Part shown: piece after piece, positions 8,059 through 64,000 of the stretch
Numbering within the stretch: position 1 is the stretch's first letter
How the letters are laid out: every line of letters begins with the position of its first letter
Source of the DNA: Alphaproteobacteria bacterium
GTDB taxonomy: Bacteria > Pseudomonadota > Alphaproteobacteria > RF32 > CAG-239
DNA: 64,000 bases
Assembly (NCBI GenBank): GCA_015062535.1
Contig: SUUK01000001.1
Coordinates: 399,055 to 463,054, forward strand
Direction of reading: 5' to 3'
The notes under the pieces: generated by a model
Told to the model about the DNA's origin: nothing
Database searches by the model: none
Seen by the model: only the letters and a program-made list of their open reading frames with translations
Made by a program: the position numbers and the translations under genes

Positions 8059-8337
8059 ATGACAGATGCAATAAAAACCGAACTAAAAATACAAAATCAA
8101 CGAGGCCTACATGCAAGAGCTGCCGCCAACTTTGTAAAAGCCCTAGATGGCTTAAATGCAGAAGTAGAGGTAGAGCGTTTAGGACAAACTGTTGATGGCT
8201 GTTCAATCATGGGATTAATGATGCTTGCTGCCTCAATCGGCACCACAATCACCGTAACCGCAAGAGGGACAGATGCTAAAAAGGCCATAGATAATTTAAC
8301 AACTCTTGTAAATAACAAGTTTGGAGAAGAACAATGA
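8059..8337 (+). CDS. ptsH: phosphocarrier protein HPr (NPr-like)
   Basis: QNQRGLHARAAANFV has the HPr active-site His15 context. Length is 92 aa. Confidence 0.85.
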   Translation: MTDAIKTELKIQNQRGLHARAAANFVKALDGLNAEVEVERLGQTVDGCSIMGLMMLAASIGTTITVTARGTDAKKAIDNLTTLVNNKFGEEQ

Positions 8338-21710: not shown

Positions 21711-23411
21711 ATGGAACAGAAAATAATCAGATGTGCAGTATACACTCGTAAATCAACAGAAGAAGGGTTAGACAAGGAGTTTAACACTTTAGAAGCTCAA
21801 CGAGAGGCTGGTGAAAACTATATCAAGAGCCAAAAACAACAAGGTTGGGTCTTGCTTCCACAGCATTATGATGATGGTGGTTATAGCGGTGGCACATTAA
21901 AACGTCCTGCCCTTCAAAGACTATTGTCTGATGTGCAAAATGGTAATATTGATATGATTGTTGTTTATAAAATTGACCGCTTAACCCGTTCTTTGCTAGA
22001 CTTTTCACAACTGATTAAAACGCTTGATGCACATAATTGTTCTTTTGTTTCTGTTACACAAAATTTTAACACTTGCGATTCCATGGGTAAACTGACCTTG
22101 AACATTTTATTATCGTTTGCCCAATTTGAACGAGAAGTAAGTGCTGAACGTATCCGAGACAAAATTGCCGCCACCAAGAAAAAAGGTATGTGGACTGGTG
22201 GTAGCGTTCCCCTTGGCTATGATGTTAAAAATAAAAAATTAGTAGTTAATCAGGAAGAAGCAAAAATAGTTCGCTATCTATTTGAAGAATATTTACGTTG
22301 TCGGTCAGAAGTTCAAGTGAGCAGAAACGCCAACGAAATGGGCTATCACTCTAAAGCTCGTAAAGTTCGTAATAGTCAAGGAGAAGTTGCCTTGTCTTTT
22401 AACCATGCGATGATTAATAATTTACTCCGTAATCCTATTTATATTGGAAAGATACCTTACAAAACAGAATTGTTTGATGGACTACACAAAGCGATAATTC
22501 CTATGGATTTGTGGAATCAAGTACAAGAATTAAAAAGGCTTAACCGCCGAGAACGTTTTGCCCCCTCCCGTTCTGTTAAAAATTCATTATTAAAAGGCCT
22601 TGTAGAATGTGAATGTTGCGGCACAATGACACCTACCCGCTGCAAACGAAAAAACAAATATTACGAGTATTATACTTCATCAAAAGCTGTCAAAGAAGGT
22701 CATCATTTATGTAGAACAGGAAGTGTTCCAGCAGGTGAGTTAGATAGATTTGTTTTGGATAAAGTTAGAAATGCATTCAAATCTCCAGAAATTATTCAAG
22801 AATTAGTGCATCAAATTAAACCGTACAAACCTGAGTATGGCGTAAGAGAAGTTTTTGACATTGTGCAGTCGGTTGATAAAGTTTTTGAGCATTTTGAACC
22901 GGCAACATTACAGTCAATCATAAAACAACTTGTTGATAAAGTCATTATACACAAAGGCAAAGTTGTCATTCGATTTAACAGTTTTGGCGTATCGTTGCTT
23001 GATGATAATATTAAATTTCAAAATGAGTTTAATAAAAAAACACTAGAATTTACTTATAATGTTACGTTGGCTCGTAAAAGAGGTCGAGTAAAAATAGTCA
23101 ATCCTCTTCCGTCAGAAACACCTGAAAAAGACGAGATTTTAATAAATGCCGTATCCAAAGCCTTTAAATGGCAAGATTTGTTGGAAAGAACAAATTTAAC
23201 AATTGCAGAATTAGCCCGAAGAGAAAAAATTGACAGGACATATATGGGACGCATTTTAAAACTATGTTCTCTTGCTCCCGAAATTATTAATGCAATTATA
23301 GAGGGAAAACAACCACGATTGCTTAATTTACAAGTCTTTACCAGAAACCAAATCCCTCTTTTATGGAGTGAACAACTTAAAAAATATGGTTTTGTTTACG
23401 ATTCGCACTGA
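21711..23411 (+). CDS. large serine recombinase (phage integrase, resolvase/invertase N-terminal domain + recombinase domain + zinc ribbon)
   Basis: N-terminus VYTRKSTEEG..QREA has the catalytic Ser/Arg context. It is followed by a recombinase domain and Cys clusters (CECCG..C) over 566 aa. Confidence 0.9.
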   Translation: MEQKIIRCAVYTRKSTEEGLDKEFNTLEAQREAGENYIKSQKQQGWVLLPQHYDDGGYSGGTLKRPALQRLLSDVQNGNIDMIVVYKIDRLTRSLLDFSQLIKTLDAHNCSFVSVTQNFNTCDSMGKLTLNILLSFAQFEREVSAERIRDKIAATKKKGMWTGGSVPLGYDVKNKKLVVNQEEAKIVRYLFEEYLRCRSEVQVSRNANEMGYHSKARKVRNSQGEVALSFNHAMINNLLRNPIYIGKIPYKTELFDGLHKAIIPMDLWNQVQELKRLNRRERFAPSRSVKNSLLKGLVECECCGTMTPTRCKRKNKYYEYYTSSKAVKEGHHLCRTGSVPAGELDRFVLDKVRNAFKSPEIIQELVHQIKPYKPEYGVREVFDIVQSVDKVFEHFEPATLQSIIKQLVDKVIIHKGKVVIRFNSFGVSLLDDNIKFQNEFNKKTLEFTYNVTLARKRGRVKIVNPLPSETPEKDEILINAVSKAFKWQDLLERTNLTIAELARREKIDRTYMGRILKLCSLAPEIINAIIEGKQPRLLNLQVFTRNQIPLLWSEQLKKYGFVYDSH

Positions 23412-24460: not shown

Positions 24461-25138
24461 ATGGATAGAAAAACGTCATTCGTGTTTTATCCTGCGGAGT
24501 TCCTTGCTTCTGTGTATAATTTTACAAATTGTGAATGTGCGACATTAATTAAGGCTCTTTGTGAGTACGCTCTGTACGGAAAAATCACAAAAAATTTATC
24601 GGAAAAAGTTCAAGACCGTTTTAATTTTTTGCAAGCAGGCATTGATGAAAACAATCGCAAATATTTTGAAACCTGCGAAAAACGTAAGGCTGGCGGCTCT
24701 AAAGGTGGTCGTCCAAAACGAGAAAAAGAAAACCTTAAGGTTTCTGAACCACCACCAAATTCTGCCAACGAAAAACCTGATAAGGAGAAGGATAAGGATA
24801 AAGGAGATGAAGAGTCCGGATATGTTTTTATTAAAAATAATAAAAATAAAGGGGCTGAAAATGTGGATAAGTCAGGATATGTCGGTGCTCCGAGCGTTGA
24901 AGAAGTGGCTGAATACTGCAAACGAAGTGGATATACAATTGACCCTGTAGCCTTCGTTCGGTGGAACGAAGAACGTGGTTGGATGAACGGCAAGAAATAC
25001 ATTGCCGTTGACTGGCGTAAAGCCGTCCGGAAATGGTTTTGCAAGGAAAACGGTCTCGCTTACTCGGAAATGGAGACTATGACGGACATCTGTCATGATG
25101 TGCTTAGCAAAGTAAAGGTGGTGCCGGATGAAAGCTAA
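24461..25138 (+). CDS. hypothetical phage protein, possibly replication-associated (DUF1376-like N-terminus; tentative)
   Basis: N-terminal FVFYPAEFLASV...LIKALCEYALYG is followed by a basic GGSKGGRPKREKE linker and an acidic stretch. Confidence 0.3.
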   Translation: MDRKTSFVFYPAEFLASVYNFTNCECATLIKALCEYALYGKITKNLSEKVQDRFNFLQAGIDENNRKYFETCEKRKAGGSKGGRPKREKENLKVSEPPPNSANEKPDKEKDKDKGDEESGYVFIKNNKNKGAENVDKSGYVGAPSVEEVAEYCKRSGYTIDPVAFVRWNEERGWMNGKKYIAVDWRKAVRKWFCKENGLAYSEMETMTDICHDVLSKVKVVPDES

Positions 25139-25556
25139 AACCATCGCAGAAATCAAAGCAAACTTGGAAACAGCCGCCTATGTGGATCGGTTGTTGCCGC
25201 CTGTCCGTTCTCCCAAATATCGGTGTTTGATGCCCGAGATTATATACACGCCGCAAGAAATGGCCCTGATGGACCGCCGACCGGTTCGACCCCGTCCAAC
25301 TCAGGCACAGGTCAGTTTATGGGAGACTGTCACTTTAGAATGGATACCACTTCTAGAAATTGATGAACGCCGCCTTGTTTGGAAACGGGCTAACCGAATT
25401 CCTTGGAAAATTTTATGCCGAGAATTTGGCATTTGCAGAACAAGGTTAATGCTCAAGTATGATAAAGCCATTGTAAAGATTGAGTTTTACCTAAAAGGAA
25501 AGGAAAAATGCAGAGTGCAAAAAATGAGTGGACACTTTCAAAAGAAATCGCTATAA
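25128..25556 (+). CDS. hypothetical phage protein with HTH-like C-terminus
   Basis: 142-aa ORF containing RIPWKILCREFGICRTRLMLKY. Confidence 0.3.
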   Translation: MKAKTIAEIKANLETAAYVDRLLPPVRSPKYRCLMPEIIYTPQEMALMDRRPVRPRPTQAQVSLWETVTLEWIPLLEIDERRLVWKRANRIPWKILCREFGICRTRLMLKYDKAIVKIEFYLKGKEKCRVQKMSGHFQKKSL

Positions 25557-25673
25557 ATAAGGGTATAATCGGGATGGTTCTACGTAATCGTCCCGTTTAT
25601 ACATTTTTACATATAGCATCCGGCTCGGCAGTTCATCTGTCGGGCCTTTTTTTATAAGCAAAAAGGAGAAAAG

Positions 25674-26675
25674 ATGAAAAAAACAGCAGAGTTCGTTTCG
25701 CTCGGACATCCGGACAAAACGGCCGACTATATTTCCAGTTATATCCTTGACCGTATGATCGCCCAAGACCCGGACGTAAAATACGCCGTTGAGGTTATGG
25801 TCAAAGACAACACCGTCGTGTTAGGAGGCGAAATCAAAGGAAAAGTTGTCCTATCAGATGTCAAAGAGTTCGTTAAAAATGCCCTGAGAGATATCGGTTA
25901 TGATGAAAAATACGCCGAAGTTTGGGGCAAAAATGCCATAGATGTTCGTAAAATCGAAGTCATCAACCTCATCGGTCAGCAGTCAGCAGACATCAACCAA
26001 GGCGTAGTAGCCAATGGTTGGGGCGACCAAGGTGTATTTGTCGGTTACGCTTGTAAAGGTGAAGGCTTGATTAACCGAGAGCTTTATCTCGCTCGTACCC
26101 TTAACAATGCCCTTTATATTAAGGCTCGTCAAAGCAAAAACCTTGGAATTGACATTAAAACACAGATTACCTTAAACGACTACGGCCGAATTGAAACGGC
26201 TGTCGTTGCCATTCCGATGAAAGAACCGGAAGATTTAACAGATTTTATCATTGAAACACTCGGAGAAAAGCCCGACAACATCATTGTTAACGGCACCGGA
26301 AGTTTCAAATTGCATTCCTCCATCGCAGACTGCGGCATTACCGGTCGCAAATTGGCCTGCGATTTTTACTCTACTGCCTGTCCGATCGGTGGTGGCTCGC
26401 CTTGGACTAAAGACGGCAGCAAGGCAGATGTAACCCTGAACATCTATGCTCGCCGTTTAGCTCTTCGTTATTTGGAAGATAACGACGAATGCTTTGTCTA
26501 TCTCTCCTCCTGCATCGGTCGAGCCGAACTGCCCAGTGCAGTTGTTAAAACAATCAAGTCAGGTGTCGAGACAAATACCGCCATCTCGGTGGCCAAAACC
26601 CCAATTGAACTGGCCGAAGAATTGGATTTAACAAAGCCGGTTTTCGCCCGTTTATGTCGAAATGGTTTGATATAA
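25674..26675 (+). CDS. divergent, shortened S-adenosylmethionine synthetase (MetK-like) encoded by phage
   Basis: Aligns with bacterial MetK across its length. Matching segments include SLGHPDKTADYIS (GHPDK), SADINQGV, GWGDQGVFVGYA (GAGDQG), DIKTQIT, ADCGITGRKL and IGGGSPWTKDGSKADVT. The catalytic His, Asp and Lys residues are conserved. At 333 aa it has lost part of the C-terminal domain. Confidence 0.75.
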   Translation: MKKTAEFVSLGHPDKTADYISSYILDRMIAQDPDVKYAVEVMVKDNTVVLGGEIKGKVVLSDVKEFVKNALRDIGYDEKYAEVWGKNAIDVRKIEVINLIGQQSADINQGVVANGWGDQGVFVGYACKGEGLINRELYLARTLNNALYIKARQSKNLGIDIKTQITLNDYGRIETAVVAIPMKEPEDLTDFIIETLGEKPDNIIVNGTGSFKLHSSIADCGITGRKLACDFYSTACPIGGGSPWTKDGSKADVTLNIYARRLALRYLEDNDECFVYLSSCIGRAELPSAVVKTIKSGVETNTAISVAKTPIELAEELDLTKPVFARLCRNGLI

Positions 26676-26693
26676 TCCCCCGAATTTGCCGGA

Positions 26694-27074
26694 ACATATC
26701 ATACTAACGACATATAATCCCGACTTTTGGGCAGAATTGCCGGATAGTATCATACTATGCGAACATATAACATTGTATGTCGGTGTTGCCTCACATATAA
26801 GACATATATATGGGCTATTCTGACGGAATATCGCCCTATATTGCACATATATCGGACATATATTCGCATAGATTTGCATATATGTTCGCTATGATAAACC
26901 ATAGCCCGACGGTCCCGTCACAATAGGCATATAGTATCATACTATCAAGACGGTATCGAGGTTTTGAGCCGGATTTGACGGATAGTATCATACTATCAAC
27001 ATACTCTCTCGGGTTTTGGCCCGTTTGGGTGGTTAGTATCATACTAACGAGATACTATCTCGGACAGCCCTGAG
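26694..27074. repeat. array of 17-bp palindromes GATAGTATCATACTATC interleaved with ACATATAT repeats
   Basis: Full palindromes at 26743-26759, 26931-26946, 26991-27007 and 27042-27058; partial copies at 26694-26709 and 27061-27073. ACATATA(T/A) occurs four times between 26792 and 26890, enclosed by the GGGCTAT/ATAGCCC inverted repeat (26811/26901). Confidence 0.7.
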
Positions 27075-27260
27075 GCGCAACGGGTCCTTCCTGGCCTCTG
27101 TTCGTATGCGGGGACGCAAGCCGCCCGATTTTTCTAGCGAAACACCTTTTTCTTTACTGGTCGCCCATACTCGGAAACCCTTGTGTTTATTGGGGTTTGA
27201 GGGTGTCTTGTTTTTTCTGACTGGTCACTTGTAAATCTGGCTGGTCACTTTGCATTTTTT

Positions 27261-28529
27261 ATGGAGAATTACATGGAATTTAATGAAAAATATCCTACCG
27301 AAAAGCTCATCCCATATGCCCGAAACTCTCGGACACATAACGATGAACAAATCGCCCAAATTGTGGCAAGCATTAAGGAGTTCGGTTTCACGAACCCAAT
27401 CCTGATTGGAGATGATGATGTTATAATCGCCGGTCATGGTCGCCTTATGGCCGCACAACGTCTTGGCATGACAGAGGTTCCGGTCATCAGGTTGCCTCAC
27501 TTAACCGAAACACAACGCCGGGCCTTGGTCATTGCCGACAATAAGATTGCTCTGAATGCCGGATGGGATGAAGAGATGCTCCACCTTGAAATGGAAGAAC
27601 TCTCGGAATTGAACTTTGATTTGAACCTGCTTGGGTTTAACCCTGATGAGTTGAATGAAATCCAATTATTCGGTGAGGAAAAGTCGTCCGGTAACACAGA
27701 TGATGACGAAGTTCCGGAAGCACCTGAGGAAGCCATCACAAAACGTGGCGACATTTGGCAACTGGGCCGACACCGTCTGATTTGTGGCGATACCACCATG
27801 ATAGATGACGTTAAAAAGCTAATGCAGGACGAAGTCGCCGATATGATTTTCACAGACCCTCCATATAATGTGAACTATGGTTCCACCATGAAAGACAGCA
27901 TACGCTATCATGCCGGTTCACTCGGTGGCCGAAAGATTATGAACGATAACCTTGGCGAAGGTTTTGCTCAGTTCCTGACGGATAGCTTATCCAATATGAT
28001 GATGTATTGTAAAGGTGCGGCCTATGTATGCATGAGTTCATCTGAACTGCACACCCTTTATAACTCGTTCATCAATGCCGGTGGCAAATGGTCGACCTTC
28101 ATCATTTGGAAAAAGAACACCTTTACCCTTGGCCGAGCTGACTATCAGCGACAATATGAGCCTATTCTTTACGGTTGGAATGCCGAACAAAAACATCATT
28201 GGTGTGGTGACCGGGATCAGGCAGACGTTTGGGAATACAATAAACCGGTCAAAAACGACTTACACCCGACAATGAAGCCGGTTGAACTGGTGGAAAGAGC
28301 TATAAATAACAGCTCTAAAATCGGGAATATCGTTTTAGATGGTTTCGGAGGCTCCGGCTCGACGCTGATTGCGTGCGAAAAGACGGGTCGTTCTGCCCGA
28401 TTAATTGAGCTAGATCCGAAGTTTTGTGACGTCATCATCAGGCGTTGGGAGGAATATACCGGTAACAAAGCCCAACTTATTGAAAATAAAGCAGAAATAA
28501 TCGAAAATGATGCAGAATTAACTGGATAA
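27261..28529 (+). CDS. ParB-like nuclease domain fused to beta-class N6A/N4C DNA methyltransferase
   Basis: N-terminal ParB/Srx fold (GHGRLMAAQRLG) is followed by a methyltransferase with DPPYN (motif IV) preceding LDGFGGSGST (motif I). Length is 422 aa. Confidence 0.85.
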   Translation: MENYMEFNEKYPTEKLIPYARNSRTHNDEQIAQIVASIKEFGFTNPILIGDDDVIIAGHGRLMAAQRLGMTEVPVIRLPHLTETQRRALVIADNKIALNAGWDEEMLHLEMEELSELNFDLNLLGFNPDELNEIQLFGEEKSSGNTDDDEVPEAPEEAITKRGDIWQLGRHRLICGDTTMIDDVKKLMQDEVADMIFTDPPYNVNYGSTMKDSIRYHAGSLGGRKIMNDNLGEGFAQFLTDSLSNMMMYCKGAAYVCMSSSELHTLYNSFINAGGKWSTFIIWKKNTFTLGRADYQRQYEPILYGWNAEQKHHWCGDRDQADVWEYNKPVKNDLHPTMKPVELVERAINNSSKIGNIVLDGFGGSGSTLIACEKTGRSARLIELDPKFCDVIIRRWEEYTGNKAQLIENKAEIIENDAELTG

Positions 28530-31142: not shown

Positions 31143-31658
31143 ATGGGACAAAAGGTTTCACTTCGGGAATATGCCCGAATGCGTGGAGTTCGGCTTAATG
31201 CAGTTCAGACAGCCGTTAACTCCGGTCGCATACATAAAACGCCTGATGGGAAAATTGATGTGGAGGAAGCCAACAAGGAGTGGTTCATGAACACTGACCC
31301 GGCCAAAAGCAGAAAAGCTGATCCATTATTTGAAACATCTGACGGCGGTGGCATGCCCAAAAACGGGATGTCAAACTTTCAGCAGGCAAAAACGGCAGAC
31401 ATTTATTATCGGGCTATGCTTGCCAAGGCAAAGCTCAAAATGATTACAGGAGAAACAATTGACCGCAAAAAGGCAGGATTACACGCATTCAACCTAGGCA
31501 GATCATTAAGAGATTTGTTCGTTTCGTTTCCAACAAGGTACGGAGCTCTCATTGCGGCGGCATTGGAAACAGACGAACACAAAACGGTGGTGGTGTTAGA
31601 TGAATATATCCGAAAACTCTTATCAGAAAGCAAGGACGTTATCGACCGAGAACTTTGA
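31143..31658 (+). CDS. terminase small subunit
   Basis: N-terminal HTH VSLREYARMRGVRLNAVQTAVNSGRI is typical of small terminases. The gene sits immediately upstream of terL. Confidence 0.65.
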   Translation: MGQKVSLREYARMRGVRLNAVQTAVNSGRIHKTPDGKIDVEEANKEWFMNTDPAKSRKADPLFETSDGGGMPKNGMSNFQQAKTADIYYRAMLAKAKLKMITGETIDRKKAGLHAFNLGRSLRDLFVSFPTRYGALIAAALETDEHKTVVVLDEYIRKLLSESKDVIDREL

Positions 31659-33543
31659 TGCGGCAGATTATATTGAAGGCGAGTTTTTTCGTGGTGTTGA
31701 ACCGGATTCATATATGTCGGTCTCAGACTGGGCCGATGAATATCGAGTCCTGTCCAGTAAATCGGCATCCGAACCCGGACGTTGGCGAACATCAAGAACG
31801 CCTTATTTAAGAGAGATTATGGACTGTTTATCGCCCAAGAGCCCAATACAGAAAGTTGTCTTTATGAAAGGAGCCCAAATCGGTGGAACTGAATGTGGCA
31901 ACAACTGGATCGGATATATCATGCACAAGGCTCCAGGTCCGATAATGGCGGTGTCGCCGACTGTGGAAATGGCCAAGCGTAACTCTCGTCAACGTATTGA
32001 CCCGTTGATCGAGGACTGTCCGGCGTTAAAAAATCTGGTCAGTTCGCCTCGCTCTCGGGATAAAGGTAACACAATGCTGTCAAAAGACTTTCAAGGCGGC
32101 GTACTTGTGATGACCGGTGCAAACTCTGCTGTTGGACTTCGTTCCATGCCGGCTCGATACCTGTTTATGGACGAAGTGGACGGTTACCCTCAGGACATTG
32201 ACGGCGAAGGTGACCCAATTCTTTTGGCCGAGCGAAGAACCGCAACCTTTAACAAACGCAAAAAGATATTCTTGGTGTCAACTCCGACTATCAAGGGCTT
32301 ATCAAATATCGAGCGTGAGTTTGAAACATCAGATAAACGATACTATGTCGTGCCTTGCCCTTACTGTGGCGGATTTCAAAAGTTGGAATGGTCACAGATA
32401 CGAGCTGAAGGCGATAATGTTTATTATGAGTGCGAACATTGTAATAAACTCATCGGCGAGCATTATAAAACGCAGATGCTGGCGAATGGACATTGGCAAC
32501 CGACATCAAAAAGTGACGGCATAACGGCCGGATACCATTTGTCCTCGCTTTACTCTCCAGTCGGGTGGCTATCTTGGAAAGAATGCGTTGATATTTATGA
32601 AAAGACCAAGAAGAACCCGAGTTTGATACAAGGCTTCCAAAATACCATCTTGGGTGAAACGTTTGAACAAGAAAGCGATGCACCTGAATGGCAACGGCTT
32701 TATGAAACCAGAGAAACCTACCCAATCGGGACAGTTCCTAATGGCGGCTTATTCCTTACAGCCGGTGTGGATATTCAAAAAGACCGTATCGAATGCGAGG
32801 TTGTGGCCTGGGGACGACAAAAGCAAAGTTGGTCGGTGGAATATTTTGTTCTTGACGGCGATACGGCAAAACCTGACGTATGGCGACAATTACAAAATGT
32901 GCTTCATAAGGACTACCCACATGAAAGCGGTATCACAATGCCCATTCGGGTAATGTGTGTTGACTCCGGTTACGCAACCCAAGACGTTTATAACTTCGTC
33001 AAAAACTTTAACCAAGCCGTTTGGGGTGGCTCTGGTGCAAGAGCCAGTCAGCCTCATACCGTTGTGGCCATTAAAGGTCAAAGCCGAGACACCGCAATGC
33101 TCTTGTCAACCTCTAAAGCTGACACGAAAAAGAAAGGCCTGAAGGTTTGGAACGTATCGGGTCCGGTTGTTAAGACCGAACTTTACCGGTGGTTGAAGAT
33201 GGAACGCATTGGCGAAAATGCAACAGATTTCGGACGATGCCATTTTCCTCAATACTCGGAGGAATACTTCAAACAGCTGACCGCTGAACGACAAGTCGTG
33301 AAAATTAGCAACGGCTACCCGAAACCAGTATGGGAAAAAGACCCGGCAAGACGAAACGAAGCCTTGGACTGCCGAGTTTATGCTCGTGCCGGAGCTGCGA
33401 TTTATGGCCTAGATCGATTAAGTGAAAAGGCATGGCAAGAGTTAGAAGCCGTTATTCCGGCCCAAAGCTCGGCTGTTCCGGTTCAAAAGAAAAAACGATT
33501 TATTCAAATGCAACCAACAAAGGTGGATAATCCATGGTTATAG
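31600..33543 (+). CDS. terminase large subunit, lambda gpA family
   Basis: Begins MNISENS (lambda A begins MNISNSQ). The 647-aa protein has an ATPase Walker region (FMKGAQIGGTE) and Zn-finger cysteines CPYCGG..CEHC. Confidence 0.9.
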   Translation: MNISENSYQKARTLSTENFDAADYIEGEFFRGVEPDSYMSVSDWADEYRVLSSKSASEPGRWRTSRTPYLREIMDCLSPKSPIQKVVFMKGAQIGGTECGNNWIGYIMHKAPGPIMAVSPTVEMAKRNSRQRIDPLIEDCPALKNLVSSPRSRDKGNTMLSKDFQGGVLVMTGANSAVGLRSMPARYLFMDEVDGYPQDIDGEGDPILLAERRTATFNKRKKIFLVSTPTIKGLSNIEREFETSDKRYYVVPCPYCGGFQKLEWSQIRAEGDNVYYECEHCNKLIGEHYKTQMLANGHWQPTSKSDGITAGYHLSSLYSPVGWLSWKECVDIYEKTKKNPSLIQGFQNTILGETFEQESDAPEWQRLYETRETYPIGTVPNGGLFLTAGVDIQKDRIECEVVAWGRQKQSWSVEYFVLDGDTAKPDVWRQLQNVLHKDYPHESGITMPIRVMCVDSGYATQDVYNFVKNFNQAVWGGSGARASQPHTVVAIKGQSRDTAMLLSTSKADTKKKGLKVWNVSGPVVKTELYRWLKMERIGENATDFGRCHFPQYSEEYFKQLTAERQVVKISNGYPKPVWEKDPARRNEALDCRVYARAGAAIYGLDRLSEKAWQELEAVIPAQSSAVPVQKKKRFIQMQPTKVDNPWL

Positions 33544-55430: not shown

Positions 55431-56384
55431 TTACAACAGGTCATTTAATAAATTCATACATTTAATTTTTTGTTGCATATTGGCTCGGCCATATACATTT
55501 AATGTGAAAGATACATTTTTATGACCCAAAATTTCGGATAGAGATTTAACATCAAACTCCGGGATTTCTATGGCTCGAACTGCGAAAGTATGCCGAATTT
55601 CATGAAACTTAACACTACGCAGTTTGTTTTTTTTGAGGAAACGAGCAAAAAACTGTCTGTATGTTCTTGGCTCTGTTGGTTTGGTTTTCCCTGTTAAAAA
55701 ATATTGATTAGGGTTATCAGAATAATATTTCTTTATTATATTTATCAAAAGCGATGGAAGAGGAATAGTTCGGCACGAACTTGCTGTTTTAGGTGCTCCA
55801 ATGTAAACATAAGAAGTTCCTTTTACTTTATCATAAATTCGCTGAACAGTTCTTTGAATTGTTATGGTCTTATCAATAATAGAGATGTCTCGCATTTGTA
55901 AACCACACAGCTCACCAATCCGAACGCCAGTAAATAACGCAACTAAAATACCTGCAGTACGGCGGTTCATTTTCATGTAGATGGACTGTATAAGAGCCAA
56001 TTCTTCATCTTTTGATAAAGAAATCACTTTTTTTATTCCCAAATCTTTAGGGTATTCAATTAGGTCCCAATTTAGCATAGGAATAACTTGTTCTTTATAT
56101 GCAAAAATAAGGCATAAGCGTAAGACAAGTATAATATCTCGAATTGTTTTTACTGTTAAGCCTCCTTTTTTATCAAGCCTACCTTCATTATAAAGCGTAT
56201 TGATATAACATTGTATATCAGCTTCGGTGATGCTTAATATTTTCTTTTTACCCATTGATGGAATCAAATGGTTTTCAGAAATTAAAACAAAGTTAGCATA
56301 AGTCGATGGTGTAATCATCGGTTGCTTTTGTGTTAACCATGTTTTTACTAAAGTTTTAAATTGGGTATTTTGAGTTATTTTCAT
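55431..56384 (-). CDS. tyrosine site-specific recombinase (candidate hsdS invertase)
   Basis: 317 aa with the HEIRHTFAVRAIE (HxxR) box and a C-terminal catalytic Tyr (NVYGRA). It is adjacent to the inverted hsdS cassettes and is AT-rich like the host. Confidence 0.85.
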   Translation of the reverse strand: MKITQNTQFKTLVKTWLTQKQPMITPSTYANFVLISENHLIPSMGKKKILSITEADIQCYINTLYNEGRLDKKGGLTVKTIRDIILVLRLCLIFAYKEQVIPMLNWDLIEYPKDLGIKKVISLSKDEELALIQSIYMKMNRRTAGILVALFTGVRIGELCGLQMRDISIIDKTITIQRTVQRIYDKVKGTSYVYIGAPKTASSCRTIPLPSLLINIIKKYYSDNPNQYFLTGKTKPTEPRTYRQFFARFLKKNKLRSVKFHEIRHTFAVRAIEIPEFDVKSLSEILGHKNVSFTLNVYGRANMQQKIKCMNLLNDLL

Positions 56385-56489
56385 TTTATTTATCTCCTTT
56401 GAAAAATGTTAATACCGGAGATTATTTTGCACGAAATAGCCGAAAATTAGGATTTTGGGAGCAAAAATATTAACCGCAACAGCCATGAA

Positions 56490-57700
56490 AGAGGGAAAAA
56501 TGCTCCTCCTTTAATGGTCTTGAGCCGTCTCTTCGTTTTAGAAATTTTGTAGATGATTGGGAAGAGAGTAAACTTTCATCTTTCTTTAAAAAATGCTTGG
56601 AAAAAAATAAAAATGGTCTCGTTGATAATGTTATTTGCAATTCTGCAAAAAATGGATTAATGCCTCAGCGAGATTTCTTTGACAAAGATATTGCCAACAC
56701 AGAAAATACAAACGGCTATTATATTATCCAAGAAAATGATTTTGTATATAATCCTCGTAAATCCAACGAAGCACCATATGGACCAATAAGCATATATAAA
56801 TACAAAGAAAAAGGAATTGTTTCACCTCTTTATCTTTGTTTTAGAGCCACAACAGAAATTCACCCTAGATATTTTGAAATGTATTTTAAATCTTCTGTTT
56901 GGCATAATTACATTTACTTTGCAGGAGACAGCGGTGCTCGTCATGACAGGGTAAGCATTAAAGATGATGTTTTTTTTGAAATGCCAATAAACATCCCATC
57001 TCTTCCTGAGCAACAAAAAATAGCCAACTTTCTCTCACTCGTTGACCAACGTATCGAAAAACAGCGACAACTGGTCGAAGCCCTAAAGAAGTATAAAAGA
57101 GGGTTGTTTTTGAAGCTTTATAATGAAGCTGATAAAAACATAATATTGTTTAAAAATATCTATGATATTGCATCTGAAGGTGGCACTCCTTCAACATTAG
57201 ATCCTGAGAATTACGAGAATGGAAAACTTCCATTTATTAAAATAGATGACCTAAATCAGCATTATTTAACTGCCGCAAAATATTTTATTACTGAAAAGGG
57301 ATTAAAAAAATCTAGTGCATGGATTGTTCCTGAAAATAGTATCATTTATTCAAATGGGGCAACTATTGGAGCTTGTTCTATTAATAAAATGCCTGTAACC
57401 ACAAAACAAGGAATTTTAGGTATTGTACCAAAGAGTAATTTTTCTGTGGAATTTCTTTACTTCTATTTTACATCAAGCCTTTTTAAGGAAAAAATAAGAG
57501 CAATCACAACTAAAGGAACCATGGATTGTGCTTATTTAAAAGATATAAATAACATAAAAATAAATATTCCCAATTTCATAATTCAACAAAAAATAGCAAA
57601 AGTTATGGTGAATTTTGAAAATTTAATAGAACGAACCGAGTTCGCACTTATATCCTTACAAAATATTAAAAAAGCACTTTTACAGAAAATGTTTATATAA
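56490..57700 (+). CDS. silent hsdS cassette A' (two TRDs; no ATG start, frame opens at 56490)
   Basis: HsdS-like with an N-terminal NGLEPSLRF motif, central EQQKIANFLSLVDQRIEKQRQLVEALKKYKRGL and C-terminal LLQKMFI. The first in-frame start is a TTG at 56597. Confidence 0.75.
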
Positions 57701-58805
57701 ACATTTGTTGCAAGAAGGCATTTTTCATATCAAGCAAAGATTCCTCCATAATTTGTTCATTTTTTATTTTTTGTTCAATACTATCTAAGAAAAATGAAAG
57801 TTTTTCTTGGAATTCAATAGATGGAACTGGAATGGAATGACGTGCAACATCACTTCTTATTATTTGGGGCTGAGCAGAACCTGAGACAAGATATTTCAAG
57901 TTTTGATTAGATAAACAGTGATATAAATAACGTTTATTTATTTTATTTTGTTCATCGATATTTACAACCATAGAGTTTCCTGTAATCCACGTGTAAGCAT
58001 CTACAAAGTTTACTGTTCCACATTTTTCCCCTCGGCAACTAATTGTTACTTGAGGTGTTTCATGATTGTATTGATCATAATTACCAATATATCCATTTGC
58101 TCCAAAAACCTTATATTCCCCATCGTTAAATTGAGATTGTGATATTGTAGATGGTTGGTAAATTTTTGCAAATTCGCCGAGACGAACTATTTTATAGCTT
58201 TCATTTTTTTGAAAATAATAAGAAAACAAACCTCTTTTATACTTCTTTAAGCTCTCGACCAGTTGTCGCTGTTTTTCGATACGTTGGTCAACGAGTGAGA
58301 GGAAGTTGGCTATTTTTTGTTGCTCGGGAAGAGATGGATAACCAACCTTGTAGTCCATAATAAAATTTTTATCTCCTCTGGGCATCTTACATCCCTTAGC
58401 CGCACCCATTACATAGTCAATAAATTTGTCATTGGCTATTATATACTTCAAGAATAACGAATTTTGTTTATTGGTATGTATGACAAGTACGTCTGTGCTT
58501 GCGGCTCCATCGAAAGTTGCATACCAAACTTTGCGTAGATACGGGCGAATATTAGCAAGAAGTATATCATTTTTTTCAAATTTTACCCCAGAAACTACTG
58601 TTTCATCGACGTATTGTTCTATTCCTTGGAAATTTTGTAGCATATTTTCAGTACTAATAAAATGCCTCTTATTAACGGATGTACGCTTATTACCATATGA
58701 AGCCAAGTCTTTTAATGGCGAAATATTCCATGCATTTAAATACGCCTTAAATCTTAGTCGTGGATAAGCTTCAAGACCATTAAAAGAGGAGAAAATAATC
58801 CCCAA
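57693..58805 (-). CDS. silent hsdS cassette B' (two TRDs)
   Basis: HsdS-like. Its 3' end overlaps cassette A' through the palindrome ATGTTTATATAAACAT. It has no ATG and sits head-to-head with C'. Confidence 0.75.
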   Translation of the reverse strand: MGIIFSSFNGLEAYPRLRFKAYLNAWNISPLKDLASYGNKRTSVNKRHFISTENMLQNFQGIEQYVDETVVSGVKFEKNDILLANIRPYLRKVWYATFDGAASTDVLVIHTNKQNSLFLKYIIANDKFIDYVMGAAKGCKMPRGDKNFIMDYKVGYPSLPEQQKIANFLSLVDQRIEKQRQLVESLKKYKRGLFSYYFQKNESYKIVRLGEFAKIYQPSTISQSQFNDGEYKVFGANGYIGNYDQYNHETPQVTISCRGEKCGTVNFVDAYTWITGNSMVVNIDEQNKINKRYLYHCLSNQNLKYLVSGSAQPQIIRSDVARHSIPVPSIEFQEKLSFFLDSIEQKIKNEQIMEESLLDMKNAFLQQMFI

Positions 58806-59968
58806 TTAATGGTCTTGAGCCGAAACTAAGATTCCCTAATTTTATAGAAAAATGGACACGATTTGAAGCTGAGAATATATTTAAAAATATTACAGACAAA
58901 AATCATCCCACAGATACAGTTCTTACCATTCAACAAGGAAGAGGAACTCTACCAAGAGATTTATCAGGTCGAAATATTTTATATGATAACACAAATACTA
59001 AAAATTATAAAAGAGTTCAATTTGGAGATTTTATTATTCATTTACGTTCTTTTGAAGGCGGATTGGAAATGGCTAATGAACAAGGTATTGTTAGCCCAGC
59101 ATACACTATTTTAAGATACATCAAGCCCATTGCATTTGGTTTTTATAAAGCTTATTTTAGGACAAATGAATTTATAAATCATATATTAAGTAAGTCTGTT
59201 GAAGGAATTAGGGATGGCAAACAAATCAGCTATGATGCGTTTAAATGGTTAGCTATTCCATATTGTCAATTAGAAGAACAACAAAAGATTGCTGATTTCC
59301 TTTCGCTCGTTGATCAACGCATCGAAAAACAGCGGCAGTTGGTCGAGAGCTTAAAGAAGTATAAAAGAGGGTTGTTTTTGAAGCTTTATGGTAGTTTTGA
59401 AAAAAAAAGCTACAAAATAAGCGAGTTAGGAAAATATTGTGCCACAGGTACATTATCAAAAGACGATATTGATGTTTCTGGAGTGTATCAATGCATTTTA
59501 TATGGGGAACTTTTCACAAAATATGGAGAAACAATCCGTCAGGTTATCAGTCGGACTAATGTCACTCCAACTTACTTAAGTAGCACTAACGAAATTTTAT
59601 TTCCATCTTCAACCACAGCCGATGCCTTGTCACTAATATTTCCATCATCGTTAAAAATAGAAAATATATTCCTCGGAGGGGATTTATTTACAATTAAACT
59701 TAAAAATGAATTTGACAGCGATTTTATAAGTTATTTAATAAATTTTGTGTATAAAAATACTTTTGCCCGTTATGCCCAAGGAATTACAATTATTCATTTA
59801 CACTACACGGATATCAAAGAACAAATAATCGATATACCGGATATAGTTGTTCAGCTTAAGATATCGGATATAATGAAAAAAATTGAAGCCATAATTGAAA
59901 ATAATGACAATGAATTAAACTCACTATTACTTATGAAAAAAAGTTTTTTGCAACAAATGTTTATATAA
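58799..59968 (+). CDS. silent hsdS cassette C' (two TRDs; no start codon for the first 88 codons)
   Basis: The frame opens with NGLEPKLRFPNF. The central repeat is at 59273-59390 and the C-terminal FLQQMFI palindrome is shared with the expressed hsdS. Confidence 0.75.
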   Translation, partial: SPINGLEPKLRFPNFIEKWTRFEAENIFKNITDKNHPTDTVLTIQQGRGTLPRDLSGRNILYDNTNTKNYKRVQFGDFIIHLRSFEGGLEMANEQGIVSPAYTILRYIKPIAFGFYKAYFRTNEFINHILSKSVEGIRDGKQISYDAFKWLAIPYCQLEEQQKIADFLSLVDQRIEKQRQLVESLKKYKRGLFLKLYGSFEKKSYKISELGKYCATGTLSKDDIDVSGVYQCILYGELFTKYGETIRQVISRTNVTPTYLSSTNEILFPSSTTADALSLIFPSSLKIENIFLGGDLFTIKLKNEFDSDFISYLINFVYKNTFARYAQGITIIHLHYTDIKEQIIDIPDIVVQLKISDIMKKIEAIIENNDNELNSLLLMKKSFLQQMFI

Positions 59969-61217
59969 ACATCTGCTGCAATAATCCTTTTTTACATTTT
60001 TCTAGTGTGTCCAAATATTTATTATGTTGGTCAACATAACTATCAACTTTTCTTAATACTTTTGATATTATTAATTGTTCATCATAACAAGGTACAAAAA
60101 TTTTTGTAGGCTCTAGAATTGAAATATAAGAACGTTGGTGACTTTGCGGCATAAGGTTGAGTGAAAGAAGTAAATTGTACATAAAATATAAATCATTAAA
60201 ATTTTTGCACGTTAACATTTTTATAGTAGATGACTTAACCTTAAAACTAAAATCAACAAATTTAAAATCCATCGTAAAATCATCATATATTATAGTTTCA
60301 CCTTTAGAGTACACTCCTGTCTCCTCATTTGTGTACCCTAGTATAAATGCTTTATTTGCAGTTAGTACTGGTGTTTTATATTCATCATTGTAATTTTCGG
60401 AAAAAACAATATATTTCTGTGGTTGTTCATAATTAAGAACATCCGCCACAGTTTTTAATTCCCAATCGGGAAAATTATTTCCATTATCATCTTTAAATCT
60501 GATTTTTCTATCAAAAATAGCGGATAACAACCCTCTTTTATACTTCTTTAGGGCTTCGACCAGTTGTCGCTGTTTTTCGATACATTGGTCAACGAGCGAA
60601 AGGAAATCAGCAATCTTTTGTTGTTCATTTATATCTGAACTTAAAAAATGTGTGGTAGCAAAAAAATCATCTGTTGGAACATTAAGGAGACCATGGTTTC
60701 TTGCTCCTTCTGCCGAAATAACATAGATTTGACGATACCATTTTAATGAATCAAAATAGTGCTTAATATAATCAGAACAATGTTTTTTCAGAGAAAAACA
60801 AATATAGAGAGTGGATAATGCCCCCATTTCGTATCGTTCTAATCTTTTTATTGATCCAAAATCATAACCATTAGAATAACTTTTATTATATGCAAATTCT
60901 CCATTTTTTAGAAGGTAATAACCGGACATATCTTTGCTTGATACTTTTTTATTAAAGAATGTAACTTGATCAACTAAACCATCTTTGGAAGATATTGTTA
61001 AAGGCAATTCTGTTTCATTGTTGCTATTTTTTCGCATAATTCTTGAAGTGAAGTCTGATAGTTTTTCCTGCATCCAAGGATGAGTGAACTTTCGAAATCT
61101 TAATAAAGGAAACTTCGGTTCAAGACCATTACTTGAGGATACATTTTCGGAAAAAAAAGAAGAATTTTGCGTATCTTGATTTTCGCCATTTGGCACTTTA
61201 TTTTCGATATTTTCCAT
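59961..61217 (-). CDS. hsdS: Type I restriction-modification specificity subunit (expressed copy)
   Basis: ATG with GAGGAG RBS lies 3 nt after the hsdM stop. It has two TRDs flanking the conserved central repeat. Confidence 0.85.
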   Translation of the reverse strand: MENIENKVPNGENQDTQNSSFFSENVSSSNGLEPKFPLLRFRKFTHPWMQEKLSDFTSRIMRKNSNNETELPLTISSKDGLVDQVTFFNKKVSSKDMSGYYLLKNGEFAYNKSYSNGYDFGSIKRLERYEMGALSTLYICFSLKKHCSDYIKHYFDSLKWYRQIYVISAEGARNHGLLNVPTDDFFATTHFLSSDINEQQKIADFLSLVDQCIEKQRQLVEALKKYKRGLLSAIFDRKIRFKDDNGNNFPDWELKTVADVLNYEQPQKYIVFSENYNDEYKTPVLTANKAFILGYTNEETGVYSKGETIIYDDFTMDFKFVDFSFKVKSSTIKMLTCKNFNDLYFMYNLLLSLNLMPQSHQRSYISILEPTKIFVPCYDEQLIISKVLRKVDSYVDQHNKYLDTLEKCKKGLLQQMFI

Positions 61218-61220
61218 GGC

Positions 61221-62795
61221 TTAATTCTCCTCAGCGAATGGGAAATCCAAACCCAATTCATCAAAGTATGGTTTTAATTGTGCATTGATATCTTTTATTT
61301 CTGCTTGAAGGTTTTTGATTTCTCCAAAAACAGCATTTAAGTCAATTTCTTCTTCTTTTTCAAATGTATCAACATATCTTGGAATGTTTAAATTGAAGCC
61401 ATTTTCTGCGATTTCTTCCATTGTTGCAACGTGGGCATACTTTTCAACATCTTCACGTTTTACGTAGGTTTCCACAATTTTATCGATATCGCATTCTCTT
61501 AAAATGTTTTGATTTTTACCGGATTCATACTCTTTAGATGCATCAATAAATAAAATATTATTTGCGTTAGCATTGCGGTTTTTCTTTAATACGAGCACGC
61601 ATACAGGGATACCTGTTCCAAAGAACAAGTTAGCAGGCAAACCGATAACAGCATCCAAAATGTTCAATTTTTCAATTAAATATTTGCGAATTGTTTCTTC
61701 AGATGAGCCACGGAAAAGAACACCATGAGGAAGAAGAACAGCAATACGACCATCTTCGTCCATGTGATGAACCATGTGTTGCACAAATGCAAAGTCAGCC
61801 TTACTCTTTGGAGCAAGTTTGCCATATTCGTTAAAACGTTCATCTTCCATAAACTTCTCATCAGCTGACCAGTTTGCGGAATATGGAGGATTAGCAACCT
61901 GAACACGATATTTTCTATCTTTGGCTTTTTCTTCAAAATAGTCATGTTCTAAAGTGTCACCATTATAAATTTCAAAGTTGCTGTAGGGGATACCACGCAA
62001 AATCATGTTCATTCTTGCGAGGTTGTATGTTGTAGAGGTTAACTCTTGGCCGTAGTAATTACGGACATTAACATATTTTTTCAAACGCAATAACAGAGAA
62101 CCGGAACCACACGTTGGGTCTGCAGCAGCTTTTACATCTGTCAAACCATGACATGATAAACGGCAAAGCAATTCTGCCGGTGCTGCCGGCGTATAGAATT
62201 CACCAGCTTTTTTACCTGCAGTTGCAGCAAATTGACCAATTAAGTATTCATAAGCATTACCTAAAACGTCAATACGAGTATCTTCAAAGCTGAACTCAAT
62301 TTCATCTAAAGAGGAAATAATTTTTGCCATAACCGTAGAACGGTCTTTTACAGTATGTCCCAGTTTAGTTGAATCTAATTGCATATCAGAGAATAAACCT
62401 TCAAAATGCTCTTGGGAGGCATTGCCGATTGTAGATTCCATTAAAGAGTTGATAGCTTTTTGAAGAAATTCAATATCGAAAGAACGGTTTTCAACCATTT
62501 CCACCATTTTACGGAACAAATACTGTGGTTCGATAACAAAGCCCAAATCACGCAGAGATTCTTCAATAACGGCTTCTTTATATTCCGGATCATTCCAAGC
62601 GTTTTCATAAGAAATGCCATCATCTTTCAAGATTTTGTTCATATACTTTTCTGTGCGGTCAGAAAGGTAATAATAGAATATCATACCCAAAATGTAGTTT
62701 TTAAACTCATAGGCTTCCATGTTTCCACGCAATGCGTTGGCCATAGACCACAACTTATTACATAATTCTTTTTGATGGGCTTGAATATTATCCAT
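61221..62795 (-). CDS. hsdM: Type I restriction-modification methyltransferase subunit
   Basis: Contains the NPPY motif (VANPPYSANW), an AdoMet-binding region, and the HsdM N-terminal domain. Length is 524 aa. Confidence 0.9.
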   Translation of the reverse strand: MDNIQAHQKELCNKLWSMANALRGNMEAYEFKNYILGMIFYYYLSDRTEKYMNKILKDDGISYENAWNDPEYKEAVIEESLRDLGFVIEPQYLFRKMVEMVENRSFDIEFLQKAINSLMESTIGNASQEHFEGLFSDMQLDSTKLGHTVKDRSTVMAKIISSLDEIEFSFEDTRIDVLGNAYEYLIGQFAATAGKKAGEFYTPAAPAELLCRLSCHGLTDVKAAADPTCGSGSLLLRLKKYVNVRNYYGQELTSTTYNLARMNMILRGIPYSNFEIYNGDTLEHDYFEEKAKDRKYRVQVANPPYSANWSADEKFMEDERFNEYGKLAPKSKADFAFVQHMVHHMDEDGRIAVLLPHGVLFRGSSEETIRKYLIEKLNILDAVIGLPANLFFGTGIPVCVLVLKKNRNANANNILFIDASKEYESGKNQNILRECDIDKIVETYVKREDVEKYAHVATMEEIAENGFNLNIPRYVDTFEKEEEIDLNAVFGEIKNLQAEIKDINAQLKPYFDELGLDFPFAEEN

Positions 62796-62810
62796 AATTT
62801 AAATCCTTTC

Positions 62811-64000
62811 TTATTGAAATTTCTCTGCTAAGTTTTTAATGAAATCAACGATGCGTGCAACTAACGACTTTTTCTTTAATAAAGACATCGGTGCCTTAAT
62901 TTTATCACGAATATCGCCGGCGTTGATTACTCCGGAGAACTCATATTCTGAGATTACGTCGCTCAACATTTTGGCATCAACATCCTCTTTTTGAGCGAAC
63001 TCTTGAATTTCTCTGTTTTTCTCGGCATTTTCAAAGTCATTGTAAGCGGCATCAATTTCATCAGCATTATTTAAGCCTCTGACCACTTTGTCCAAGAATG
63101 CTTGTAACAATTCAACTTTACGCATGAGTAATGGATTATCTGCACGAGCCAATTCTTCTTCAATGTGCTTGATATCGTAGTCTTTTTGCTCAGGATCATC
63201 AAAGTGAATGTTTTTAATAAGGTTCATAATATAGGCGACATTAATACGGTTGCTTTCCATTAATTCAATACAGAAATCAACATCATTCAGTACGGAAACA
63301 ACTTCTCTTTGTTTCATGTGTCTATGATAGAGCATCAAATATTTGCTTTTATAATCCTGATACTCTTGGTCGCCCATTTCTAAATCTTCGTTGTCGAAGC
63401 TAAACTCAATAAATGTTCGTAATGAGTTGAGGTATTTGGTCAACTCTCTAAATAAAAGAACGAATTTTAACTGGTCATCTTCACTTTGTAGCGTATCAAT
63501 AGATGATGGCTCCAAAGCGATTTCTCTTATTTTTCGGACAATTTCGTTATATTTTTCTTCAAAATATTTGTATCCAGGGGTTAAAACACCATCGCTTTGA
63601 CCTTGTGAGAATAACGCTATTGCATCGTCTGTCCGTTTTTTTAGGTTGCGGTAACAGATAATAATACCGAATGGCTTTGTTTCTTTTTCAACTCGGTTTG
63701 TACGTGAATATGCCTGTAATAAATCATGGTATCTTAGGTCTTTATCAACATATAATACCGATAGAGGTTTACTGTCAAAGCCGGTTAGGAACATATTTAC
63801 GACAAGCAAAATATCCAACGATTTTGTTTTCTTTCCTTTTACCCGATCGGAAATATCCTTGTGATATGCGTGGAAGGTGTCGGTTGAAAAATTTGTGGAA
63901 TAAATGTCATTATAATCCTTGATAATATTTTCTAAGGCATCTCGGCTGTGTTGGTCGGTTCCTTCGGCATCTTCATTTTGGCCGAAAGAAAAAATACCAC
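62811..64000 (-). CDS. hsdR: Type I restriction endonuclease subunit, C-terminal part (gene continues beyond window end)
   Basis: C-terminal helicase-2/DUF3387-like region of HsdR. The reading frame stays open to position 64000. Confidence 0.8.
   Translation of the reverse strand, partial: GIFSFGQNEDAEGTDQHSRDALENIIKDYNDIYSTNFSTDTFHAYHKDISDRVKGKKTKSLDILLVVNMFLTGFDSKPLSVLYVDKDLRYHDLLQAYSRTNRVEKETKPFGIIICYRNLKKRTDDAIALFSQGQSDGVLTPGYKYFEEKYNEIVRKIREIALEPSSIDTLQSEDDQLKFVLLFRELTKYLNSLRTFIEFSFDNEDLEMGDQEYQDYKSKYLMLYHRHMKQREVVSVLNDVDFCIELMESNRINVAYIMNLIKNIHFDDPEQKDYDIKHIEEELARADNPLLMRKVELLQAFLDKVVRGLNNADEIDAAYNDFENAEKNREIQEFAQKEDVDAKMLSDVISEYEFSGVINAGDIRDKIKAPMSLLKKKSLVARIVDFIKNLAEKFQ

Follow-up and report, generated by a model that had tools for sequence, protein, structure and literature searches.

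A short methionine adenosyltransferase gene of a host-lineage type beside a ParB-methyltransferase gene in an alphaproteobacterial prophage

In a 64,000-nucleotide stretch of the genome of an uncultured gut Alphaproteobacteria bacterium (GCA_015062535.1, contig SUUK01000001.1; this whole stretch is hereafter called the window), a gene for a predicted S-adenosylmethionine (SAM) synthetase, metK, is encoded on the plus strand at 25674..26675. It begins with an ATG preceded by a good ribosome-binding site (AAAGGAGAAAAG-ATG), and it is followed, after a spacer of 585 bp, by a gene on the same strand (27261..28529) whose 422-aa product joins a ParB_N domain to a beta-class N6_N4 DNA methyltransferase. 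Both genes lie in a prophage of about 34 kb, which begins at a large serine recombinase gene (21711), takes in a gpA terminase and a lambda-type portal and ends at about 55.4 kb; the GC content is 0.417 in the prophage compared with 0.33 in the flanks, with a GC step at about 21.7 kb. The original prediction for this DNA, which was made from the sequence alone, had described the region as phage-encoded, and this is borne out by the GC contrast, the serine recombinase, the gpA terminase and the lambda-type portal. Being a MetK homologue inside a prophage, between the serine recombinase and the gpA terminase, the gene falls within the phage metK class, and the same gene block is present in IMG/VR contigs.

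The short MetK and the ParB-methyltransferase

The 333-aa product of metK was assigned as a short MetK-type methionine adenosyltransferase (MAT) from Pfam, PHROG and PDB matches, a structural model, residue conservation and dN/dS. The Pfam SAM-synthetase N (2.6e-23, 82.9 bits) and C (1.4e-12, 48.2 bits) domains were both matched above cut-off, and the M domain (2e-06, 28.3 bits) fell just under its 29-bit cut-off. The TIGR01034 metK model was matched at 2.2e-49 and PHROG_1569, a family labelled "unknown function", at 1.3e-69; relatives carry only the NCBI name 'methionine adenosyltransferase domain-containing protein'. Furthermore, 45 solved MetK sequences were matched, the best being that of C. 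jejuni (4le5, 4.5e-40), followed by E. coli (1.8e-33). Every motif quoted in the original prediction was located at its place, together with the catalytic residues: GHPDK at residue 11, ADINQGV at 105, GWGDQG at 115, DIKTQIT at 160, DCGITGRK at 219 and GGGSPWTKDGSKAD at 239. No SAM-cleaving family or fold of the T3 SAM lyase type was found, as the Pfam, PDB and best NCBIfam matches were all to MATs.

An AlphaFold2 single-chain model built from a 45-sequence alignment was confident throughout (mean pLDDT 94.7, pTM 0.93), and the three-domain MAT fold (N, M, C) is complete in the model. Foldseek placed it on the solved MetKs 4le5, 7loo and 2p02 with query-normalised TM scores of 0.85-0.88, ranking the "unusual" C. 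jejuni enzyme first and those of E. coli, N. gonorrhoeae and human (MAT2A) next. The window protein has 50 residues fewer than E. coli MetK, and the losses are scattered: a loop of 5 residues that follows the gating loop, some 25 residues from loops of the central domain and the last ~25 residues, which in E. coli MetK lie beyond the position of the GHFGR motif. The C. jejuni enzyme, the best solved match, has DIKTQ, HSS, TGRKL and PIGGG in common with the window protein; however, the two are only about 31% identical, and 4LE5, a dimeric MAT (PMC9202080), has GAGDQG and KVDRS, and its C-terminus is longer. MATs must form a homodimer for catalysis, and the large dimer interface, which builds the two active sites, is constrained, while the second interface, which forms tetramers, is evolutionarily variable; the C. 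jejuni MAT is a dimer (PMC9202080). It had been suggested from the sequence that the C-terminus of the dimer interface might be missing, but the model predicts a complete MAT fold in which the lost tail would not belong to the catalytic dimer interface.

To compare the active sites, 23 active-site or ligand-binding positions of E. coli MetK were mapped onto the alignment. All 23 are kept in the window protein, namely H14, D16, K17, E42, E55, Q98, D118, D163, K165, T227, F230 (F/Y) and D238, together with R244, K245, D249, G258-260, K265, D266, K269, D271 and I302. These include catalytic or ligand-binding residues of E. coli MetK (His14, Asp16, Lys165, Asp238, Arg244, Lys245, Lys265, Lys269, Asp271 and the GGG loop), and Gln98 of the gating loop of that enzyme. 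The same positions are kept almost without exception in 29 relatives in prophage context and 40 in chromosomal context, and they are invariant or nearly so in the 45-member alignment, down to about 30% identity. Among the prophage copies, dN/dS was 0.02-0.06; together with the residue conservation, this rules out that the gene is a pseudogene or a decayed passenger. Because all checked active-site positions are kept, the confident model superposes on solved MetKs and dN/dS is this low, the window MetK is likely an active MAT, and we place considerable confidence in this assignment.

Five members of the short MetK clade carry inteins. Those of P0139 and P0157 stand after GWGDQG and contain LAGLIDADG and Hint domains, and those of P0143, P0151 and P0159 stand inside IGGG/SPWTKD; all five have Cys at the intein start and Asn at its end, followed by Ser. 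The insertion sites are exact (GWGDQG directly followed by the intein Cys; IGGG followed by Cys and, at the far end, Asn followed by SPWTKD), and they are the two most conserved catalytic motifs. Conserved catalytic motifs are typical sites of intein insertion. MetK-methyltransferase fusions were considered for the long family members and rejected, as the extra length consists of inteins.

The downstream gene was assigned from matches to ParB_N (PF02195, 1.2e-07), the N6_N4 DNA methyltransferase domain (PF01555, 2e-25) and phrog_498 (1.4e-164). Its N-terminal domain, of the ParB/Srx fold, has GHGR at residue 58 (the GxxR box), and its methyltransferase motifs, DPPY at residue 199 (motif IV) and FGGSGST at residue 362 (motif I), stand in the beta-class order, in agreement with the predicted ParB and beta-class methyltransferase, with DPPY before FGGSGST, about 600 bp downstream of metK. 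The DPPY motif suggests methylation of N6-adenine. The ParB helix-turn-helix (HTH) domain is absent from the Pfam matches of the protein. It is about 50% identical to the Wolbachia phage WO methylase and 64% identical to the methylase of Acidithiobacillus phage AcaML1, and the phrog_498/Wolbachia phage WO fusions have the same two-domain architecture and the same order of beta-class motifs. ParB_N-N6_N4 methyltransferase fusions are enriched in phages and prophages (PMC12704722), and are also described from Wolbachia prophages (PMC3089641). No close solved or characterised homologue was found from which the target of the ParB-methyltransferase could be predicted. Most relatives of this methyltransferase are not paired with MetK, unlike the one in the window.

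Chromosomal homes of the short MetK clade

A distinct short clade, which includes the window MetK, is marked by GWGDQG (A116W in E. coli numbering), CDFY(S/G), IGGGSPWTKD and KAD[VL]T (R272 to V/L) and by a tail that ends in LCxNGLI. Canonical MetKs, including those of the Streptococcus Javan prophages and Faecalibacterium phage FP_Brigit, instead carry GAGDQG, VDTYGG, HGGGAFSGKD and KVDRS and have GHFGR, within YGHFGR, near the end; the Javan and FP_Brigit proteins are only 33-36% identical to the window protein. A scan of one genome per species returned at least 557 relatives, and the best 80 of these (65-99% identity) came almost all from gut or rumen metagenome-assembled genomes (MAGs) named "Alphaproteobacteria bacterium", for example Ca. 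Enterousia and Azospirillum sp. 51_20.

Sixty-four genome loci, each with at least 3.5 kb of downstream sequence, were informative as to gene context. The same type of prophage as in the window, in which DUF6291 and DUF6362 precede metK, a ParB-methyltransferase follows it and a gpA terminase is present, was found at 24 of the 64, and the remaining 40 had none of those prophage markers. When 79 flanking proteins of the 40 marker-free loci were scanned, they proved overwhelmingly cellular: enolase and alanyl-tRNA synthetase (L172), MutY and MscS (L135), acyl-ACP thioesterase and glycogen phosphorylase (L157), RmlD and a glycosyltransferase (L117), and also HflX, transporters and oxidoreductases. 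It should be noted that the class is not perfectly clean, as one of the 40 (L125) has a phage baseplate gene nearby. Both kinds of copy were found in single MAGs, with a prophage copy (L100) and a chromosomal copy (L157) in JAZQUH01 and likewise L102 and L117 in CASEYR01, and prophage and chromosomal copies were interleaved in a neighbour-joining tree.

The chromosomal short MetKs of gut and rumen Alphaproteobacteria are like the window protein in length (332-336 aa), in signature and in their catalytic residues, all of which are identical; they differ in setting, standing among housekeeping genes without phage markers, whereas the window copy stands in a prophage between the DUF6362 and ParB-methyltransferase genes. 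The nearest chromosomal copy is 73.6% identical to the window protein, within a chromosomal range of 65-74%. Because the chromosomal copies sit among cellular genes, the tree interleaves the two kinds and single MAGs hold both, gene context and phylogeny indicate that the window MetK is the chromosomal MetK type of the host lineage, copied into prophages. This copying probably happened more than once, in repeated exchange between host and phage. The description of the protein as strongly diverged therefore holds against E. coli MetK (about 30% identity) but not against MetKs from chromosomes of the host lineage (up to 73.6%), and its divergence and shortness appear inherited from the host chromosomal type rather than acquired as a phage adaptation.

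These comparisons also bear on whether the phage protein might modify or poison the host enzyme, forming heterodimers with the 65-74% identical host MetK and altering its MAT activity or feedback control. Lysogens carry both a host and a phage copy, the MAT homodimer is an obligatory catalytic unit with active sites across the dimer interface (PMC9202080), and the T3 SAM lyase provides a precedent for phage targeting of MetK (PDB 8bb1). However, all catalytic residues are under strong purifying selection, which an inhibitor would not need, and there are no phage-specific substitutions between prophage and chromosomal copies at the checked sites; we regard such a subunit as highly improbable. 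The T3-type SAM lyase is likewise phage-encoded, acts on the SAM pool and affects SAM-dependent restriction (bioRxiv 10.1101/2023.02.27.530186), but it catalyses the opposite reaction to a MAT, has an unrelated fold and binds MetK rather than resembling it (PDB 8bb1).

Two further arrangements were seen among the relatives. At L009 (1-12800; GCA_024181985.1, BRDB01000134.1), a pair of related prophages stands head to head; both have the gene order DUF2924, serine recombinase, DUF6291, DUF6362, MetK, and the MetK copies are 348 and 333 aa long. At L011, the head genes of a Mu-like phage with a short-clade MetK are followed by genes for Amidoligase_2 and GGACT/AIG2 proteins (14965-16373).

Association with DNA-modification genes and proposed role

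Few auxiliary genes are reported as often from gut, rumen and digester viromes as phage-borne metK. K00789 has been counted among the most abundant virome auxiliary genes, often together with a DNA cytosine methyltransferase (dcm) (PMC12180181, PMC11283538, PMC13644194); metK was present in 58.9% of Ca. Heliusvirales genomes (PMC11283538), made up 8.6% of the auxiliary metabolic genes (AMGs) of gut phages (PMC12180181) and was the top AMG in some digesters, in a report stating that the role of the phage SAM synthetase "remains to be determined" (PMC13644194). No experimental study of a phage MAT was found in the searched literature. The rarity of phage SAM synthetases implied by the original prediction was not upheld, as homologues were found in 132 deposited phage records, mostly annotated as SAM synthetases; 90 of the 132 are Streptococcus prophages, and the usual label is "S-adenosylmethionine synthetase". 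Helicobacter phage records, the top tblastn matches, were set aside, since their MetK lies beside ndk, plsX and fabH in flanking host DNA and is not a phage gene. Like the window, phage loci with metK AMGs (K00789, PHROG_1569; Javan, FP_Brigit) have the gene in the early region of a temperate phage, often followed by methyltransferases and then the terminase. The window locus is thus an ordinary member of the phage metK auxiliary-gene class, with no new mechanism or anti-restriction system shown; what is new is modest: a defined short clade, the finding that it resides on chromosomes of gut Alphaproteobacteria, the repeated host-prophage exchange, the inteins and the asymmetric association with methyltransferases. 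It is nevertheless a clean and compact example, in which a 333-aa enzyme stands beside a single methyltransferase, and it traces the phage copy back to the unusual MetK type of the host lineage itself.

In IMG/VR, 57 viral loci with a short-clade MetK (39-80% identity) were examined for methyltransferases, which were detected with seed proteins. A methyltransferase lay within about 8 kb at 33 of the 57 and within 2 kb at 27, and at 20 it was a ParB-methyltransferase fusion, although these and the following loci counts are not phylogenetically independent. A Pfam scan of the loci without a seed match added four N6_N4 methyltransferases, two radical-SAM proteins, one Mom and one amino-acid:DNA transferase. 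As background, 34% of high-quality gut phages carry a methyltransferase anywhere in the genome (PMC10477858). The adjacency was also seen on an unrelated backbone with a Mu-like portal and Terminase_3, in the order ParB, ParB, C5-methyltransferase, ParB-methyltransferase, MetK, terminase, and in Streptococcus Javan prophages, in the order MetK, adenine methyltransferase, C5 methyltransferase, terminase.

For the reverse test, 80 viral loci were retrieved with the window ParB-methyltransferase as query. All 11 of the closest loci (at least 81% identity) with enough upstream sequence had DUF6362 and MetK upstream; however, MetK was found within 7 kb at none of 40 loci with a 62-69% identical ParB-methyltransferase, 39 of which had the same type of gpA terminase downstream, and therefore the methyltransferase needs no phage MAT. 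The association is real but one-sided: MetK travels with DNA-modification genes, while the methyltransferase family manages without MetK. Of the module proposed earlier, the adjacency of the two genes stands (27/57 within 2 kb), but an obligate pair does not (0/40 in the reverse direction). Because of this one-sidedness, an accessory "supply" gene is a better fit than an obligate two-part module, and the asymmetry constrains hypotheses, since MetK tends to follow DNA-modification genes and the methyltransferase needs no MetK.

We consider it moderately probable that a host-derived auxiliary MAT raises SAM synthesis during phage replication and so spares ParB-N6A methylation of the progeny from SAM limitation. 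MetK, by its predicted activity, would make SAM from ATP and methionine; metK, which is upstream of and co-oriented with the ParB-N6A methyltransferase gene, would be expressed with the early genes; and the extra capacity for SAM synthesis would be available while the phage replicates. SAM-dependent steps, above all the methylation of many new phage genomes by the ParB-methyltransferase, would then not be limited by the host SAM pool, methylation being presumed to be the SAM sink that matters, and better-methylated progeny DNA would escape restriction in the next host. If MetK does raise phage DNA methylation or restriction escape, a very common virome annotation would gain a functional meaning.

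Several observations weigh against this role, in addition to the 40 related methyltransferases without MetK and the non-independence of the loci counts. The TIGR01034 score of the window protein (168.4 bits) is far under the 309.4-bit equivalog cut-off, and normally invariant neighbours of the active site are changed (A116W, GAFSG to GSPWT, R272 to V/L, no GHFGR tail). No biochemical evidence for any phage MetK was found in the searched literature. Lysogens already hold a chromosomal copy of the same enzyme type, and a methyltransferase is nearby in only 1 of 23 canonical-type phage MetK loci. Finally, a terminator-like GC-rich hairpin with a T-run lies on the plus strand directly upstream of metK, between the DUF6362 gene and the metK ribosome-binding site (25622..25653; stem region 25622-25646 with 10 pairs, 7 of them GC, then TTTTTTT); no Rfam family matched this hairpin.

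Some of these observations would fit a general SAM booster or lysogenic-conversion gene, which would raise the SAM supply of the whole cell (for polyamines, for methylation of RNA and protein and for radical-SAM enzymes), either in the lysogen or in the course of infection, without a special tie to the methyltransferase. The enzyme type is the chromosomal one and was repeatedly exchanged between host and phage, the related ParB-methyltransferase does without MetK in 40 of 40 related phages, about 40% of the short-clade viral loci have no methyltransferase within 8 kb, and the hairpin and the gene's own ribosome-binding site suggest that metK could be a separately regulated unit; in virome papers, too, metK is handled as an auxiliary metabolic gene of a generic kind (PMC12180181, PMC13644194). 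However, the adjacency to DNA-modification genes (27/57 within 2 kb) is far above random placement and recurs on unrelated backbones, and metK stands with early and DNA-metabolism genes in the lytic orientation, which is not a typical moron site. We therefore treat the general booster as a possible but rather unlikely explanation and prefer the supply of SAM for phage DNA methylation.

The restriction systems of the host were considered as a further setting. Outside the prophage and as context only, a Type I restriction-modification locus at 55431..63818 comprises, by Pfam, a tyrosine recombinase, four hsdS, hsdM and hsdR. In its part at 55431-61217, the tyrosine recombinase stands beside the four hsdS open reading frames (ORFs), which alternate in orientation and share 100-115-nt inverted repeats of 86-94% complementarity; by its layout the locus is a textbook hsdS shufflon, predicted to be invertible. 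The phase-variable Type I system of the original prediction is hence supported in gene layout and inverted repeats, and its CcrM-like host methyltransferase corresponds to a beta-class N6_N4 gene at 8334-9266. That the phage genes protect against switching Type I specificities is speculation, with no support beyond the integration of the prophage beside the Type I locus; this site is, as far as can be told, an accident of integration, and it should not be taken for granted that one methyltransferase covers several hsdS alleles.

The same neighbourhood bears on the idea that the extra MAT counters SAM depletion, offsetting either the SAM lyases carried by superinfecting phages, which would otherwise put the host's SAM-dependent Type I restriction out of action, or a drop in SAM that a host response causes. 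Phages are known to counter Type I restriction-modification and BREX with SAM lyases and by inhibiting MetK (bioRxiv 10.1101/2023.02.27.530186; PDB 8bb1), and the prophage does lie beside a SAM-dependent Type I system; however, that adjacency seems to be the integration-site accident just described, and no riboswitch and nothing SAM-sensing was found in the locus. Upstream of metK and in the 585-bp spacer, no SAM riboswitch or known RNA was matched at gathering thresholds, and the sub-threshold matches were chance-level ones to Spot 42 and the His-leader (E 0.11-0.76). We judge this explanation very unlikely.

A bolder picture, which we hold to be improbable, is that the short GWGDQG/GGGSPWTKD MAT is the sole housekeeping SAM synthetase of an uncultured gut alphaproteobacterial lineage and has been repeatedly captured by its prophages as a weapon in a contest over SAM. 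In one version, MetK would fuel a promiscuous ParB-methyltransferase with a high demand for SAM, whose broad methylation of phage DNA would guard it against many restriction specificities; in another, it would uphold SAM when the SAM lyases of rival phages or host responses deplete it. The altered residues (A116W, GAFSG to GSPWT, R272 to V/L) could confer unusual regulation, for example a lack of product inhibition or resistance to MetK-binding inhibitors.

The spacer and neighbouring prophage genes

The spacer between metK and the methyltransferase gene (26676..27260, 585 bp) contains no convincing ORF but has palindromes and direct repeats. The 13-bp palindrome TAGTATCATACTA occurs at 26692-27046 in four exact copies and one imperfect copy, with 51-bp phasing and in groups of two and three, between which lies an ACATATA-rich stretch. 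Nine TAGTATCATACTA matches were counted against 1.44 expected, and none of 100 shuffles reached nine. Within the window the palindrome is confined to this spacer, and among relatives it occurs only in 98%-identical ones; it could represent an operator array or origin-like sites. ParS-like loading sites for the ParB domain were rejected as a general feature, given this confinement to the window and its 98%-identical relatives, and the idea is further weakened by relatives of 70-80% identity whose spacers are 52-200 bp long or filled with cargo, and by a protein without a ParB HTH domain.

Directly before the methyltransferase start stand two to three CTGGTCAC direct repeats (27158-27250), with counterparts in relatives (TGGTCACC at L020, 6145-6179; TGGTTGTC at L006, 7283-7418; and also at L009, 11409-11490). 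Repeats of this type may mark a conserved promoter, or a conserved activator site, of the operon that follows.

The length of this slot ranges from 52 to 2713 bp in relatives, where it can hold a SocA/Panacea antitoxin-like gene together with one for a membrane protein, a RhuM-Fic gene, or 310-320-aa proteins without an assigned family, paired with membrane proteins of 139-170 aa (cargo at L021, 5380-6222; L007, 5849-6826; L006, 5836-7214; L019, 6783-8161; and L026, 7050-8491). It looks like a hotspot for toxin-antitoxin or defence morons, and we read the spacer as a variable slot for cargo and regulation that is not part of the MetK-methyltransferase mechanism.

The left end of the prophage is marked by the large serine recombinase gene (21711..23411, plus strand; Pfam Resolvase, Recombinase and Zn_ribbon_recom), which coincides with the GC step. 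It is directly followed on the same strand by a gene for a small protein (23594-24094) with weak similarity to phage RNA-polymerase sigma factors (phrog_1740, 8.3e-09), which may drive the downstream operons. Next on the plus strand are the conserved upstream neighbours of the prophage metK, a DUF6291 gene (24461..25138; Pfam 2.2e-14), with relatives in the same synteny, and a DUF6362 gene (25128..25556; Pfam 7.3e-18). DUF6362 was found upstream of metK in 11 of 11 closely related viral loci and also at L004-L010 and L018-L026.

Downstream of the metK and methyltransferase block, the head module starts with the gene for the gpA-type large terminase subunit (31600..33543, plus strand; Pfam GpA_ATPase 5.1e-97, GpA_nuclease 6.9e-85). 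Within the head module, the portal and protease genes are separated by a Fic/DOC-family gene of the opposite strand (35514-36671; Fic_N, Fic and HTH domains), which is probably a moron.

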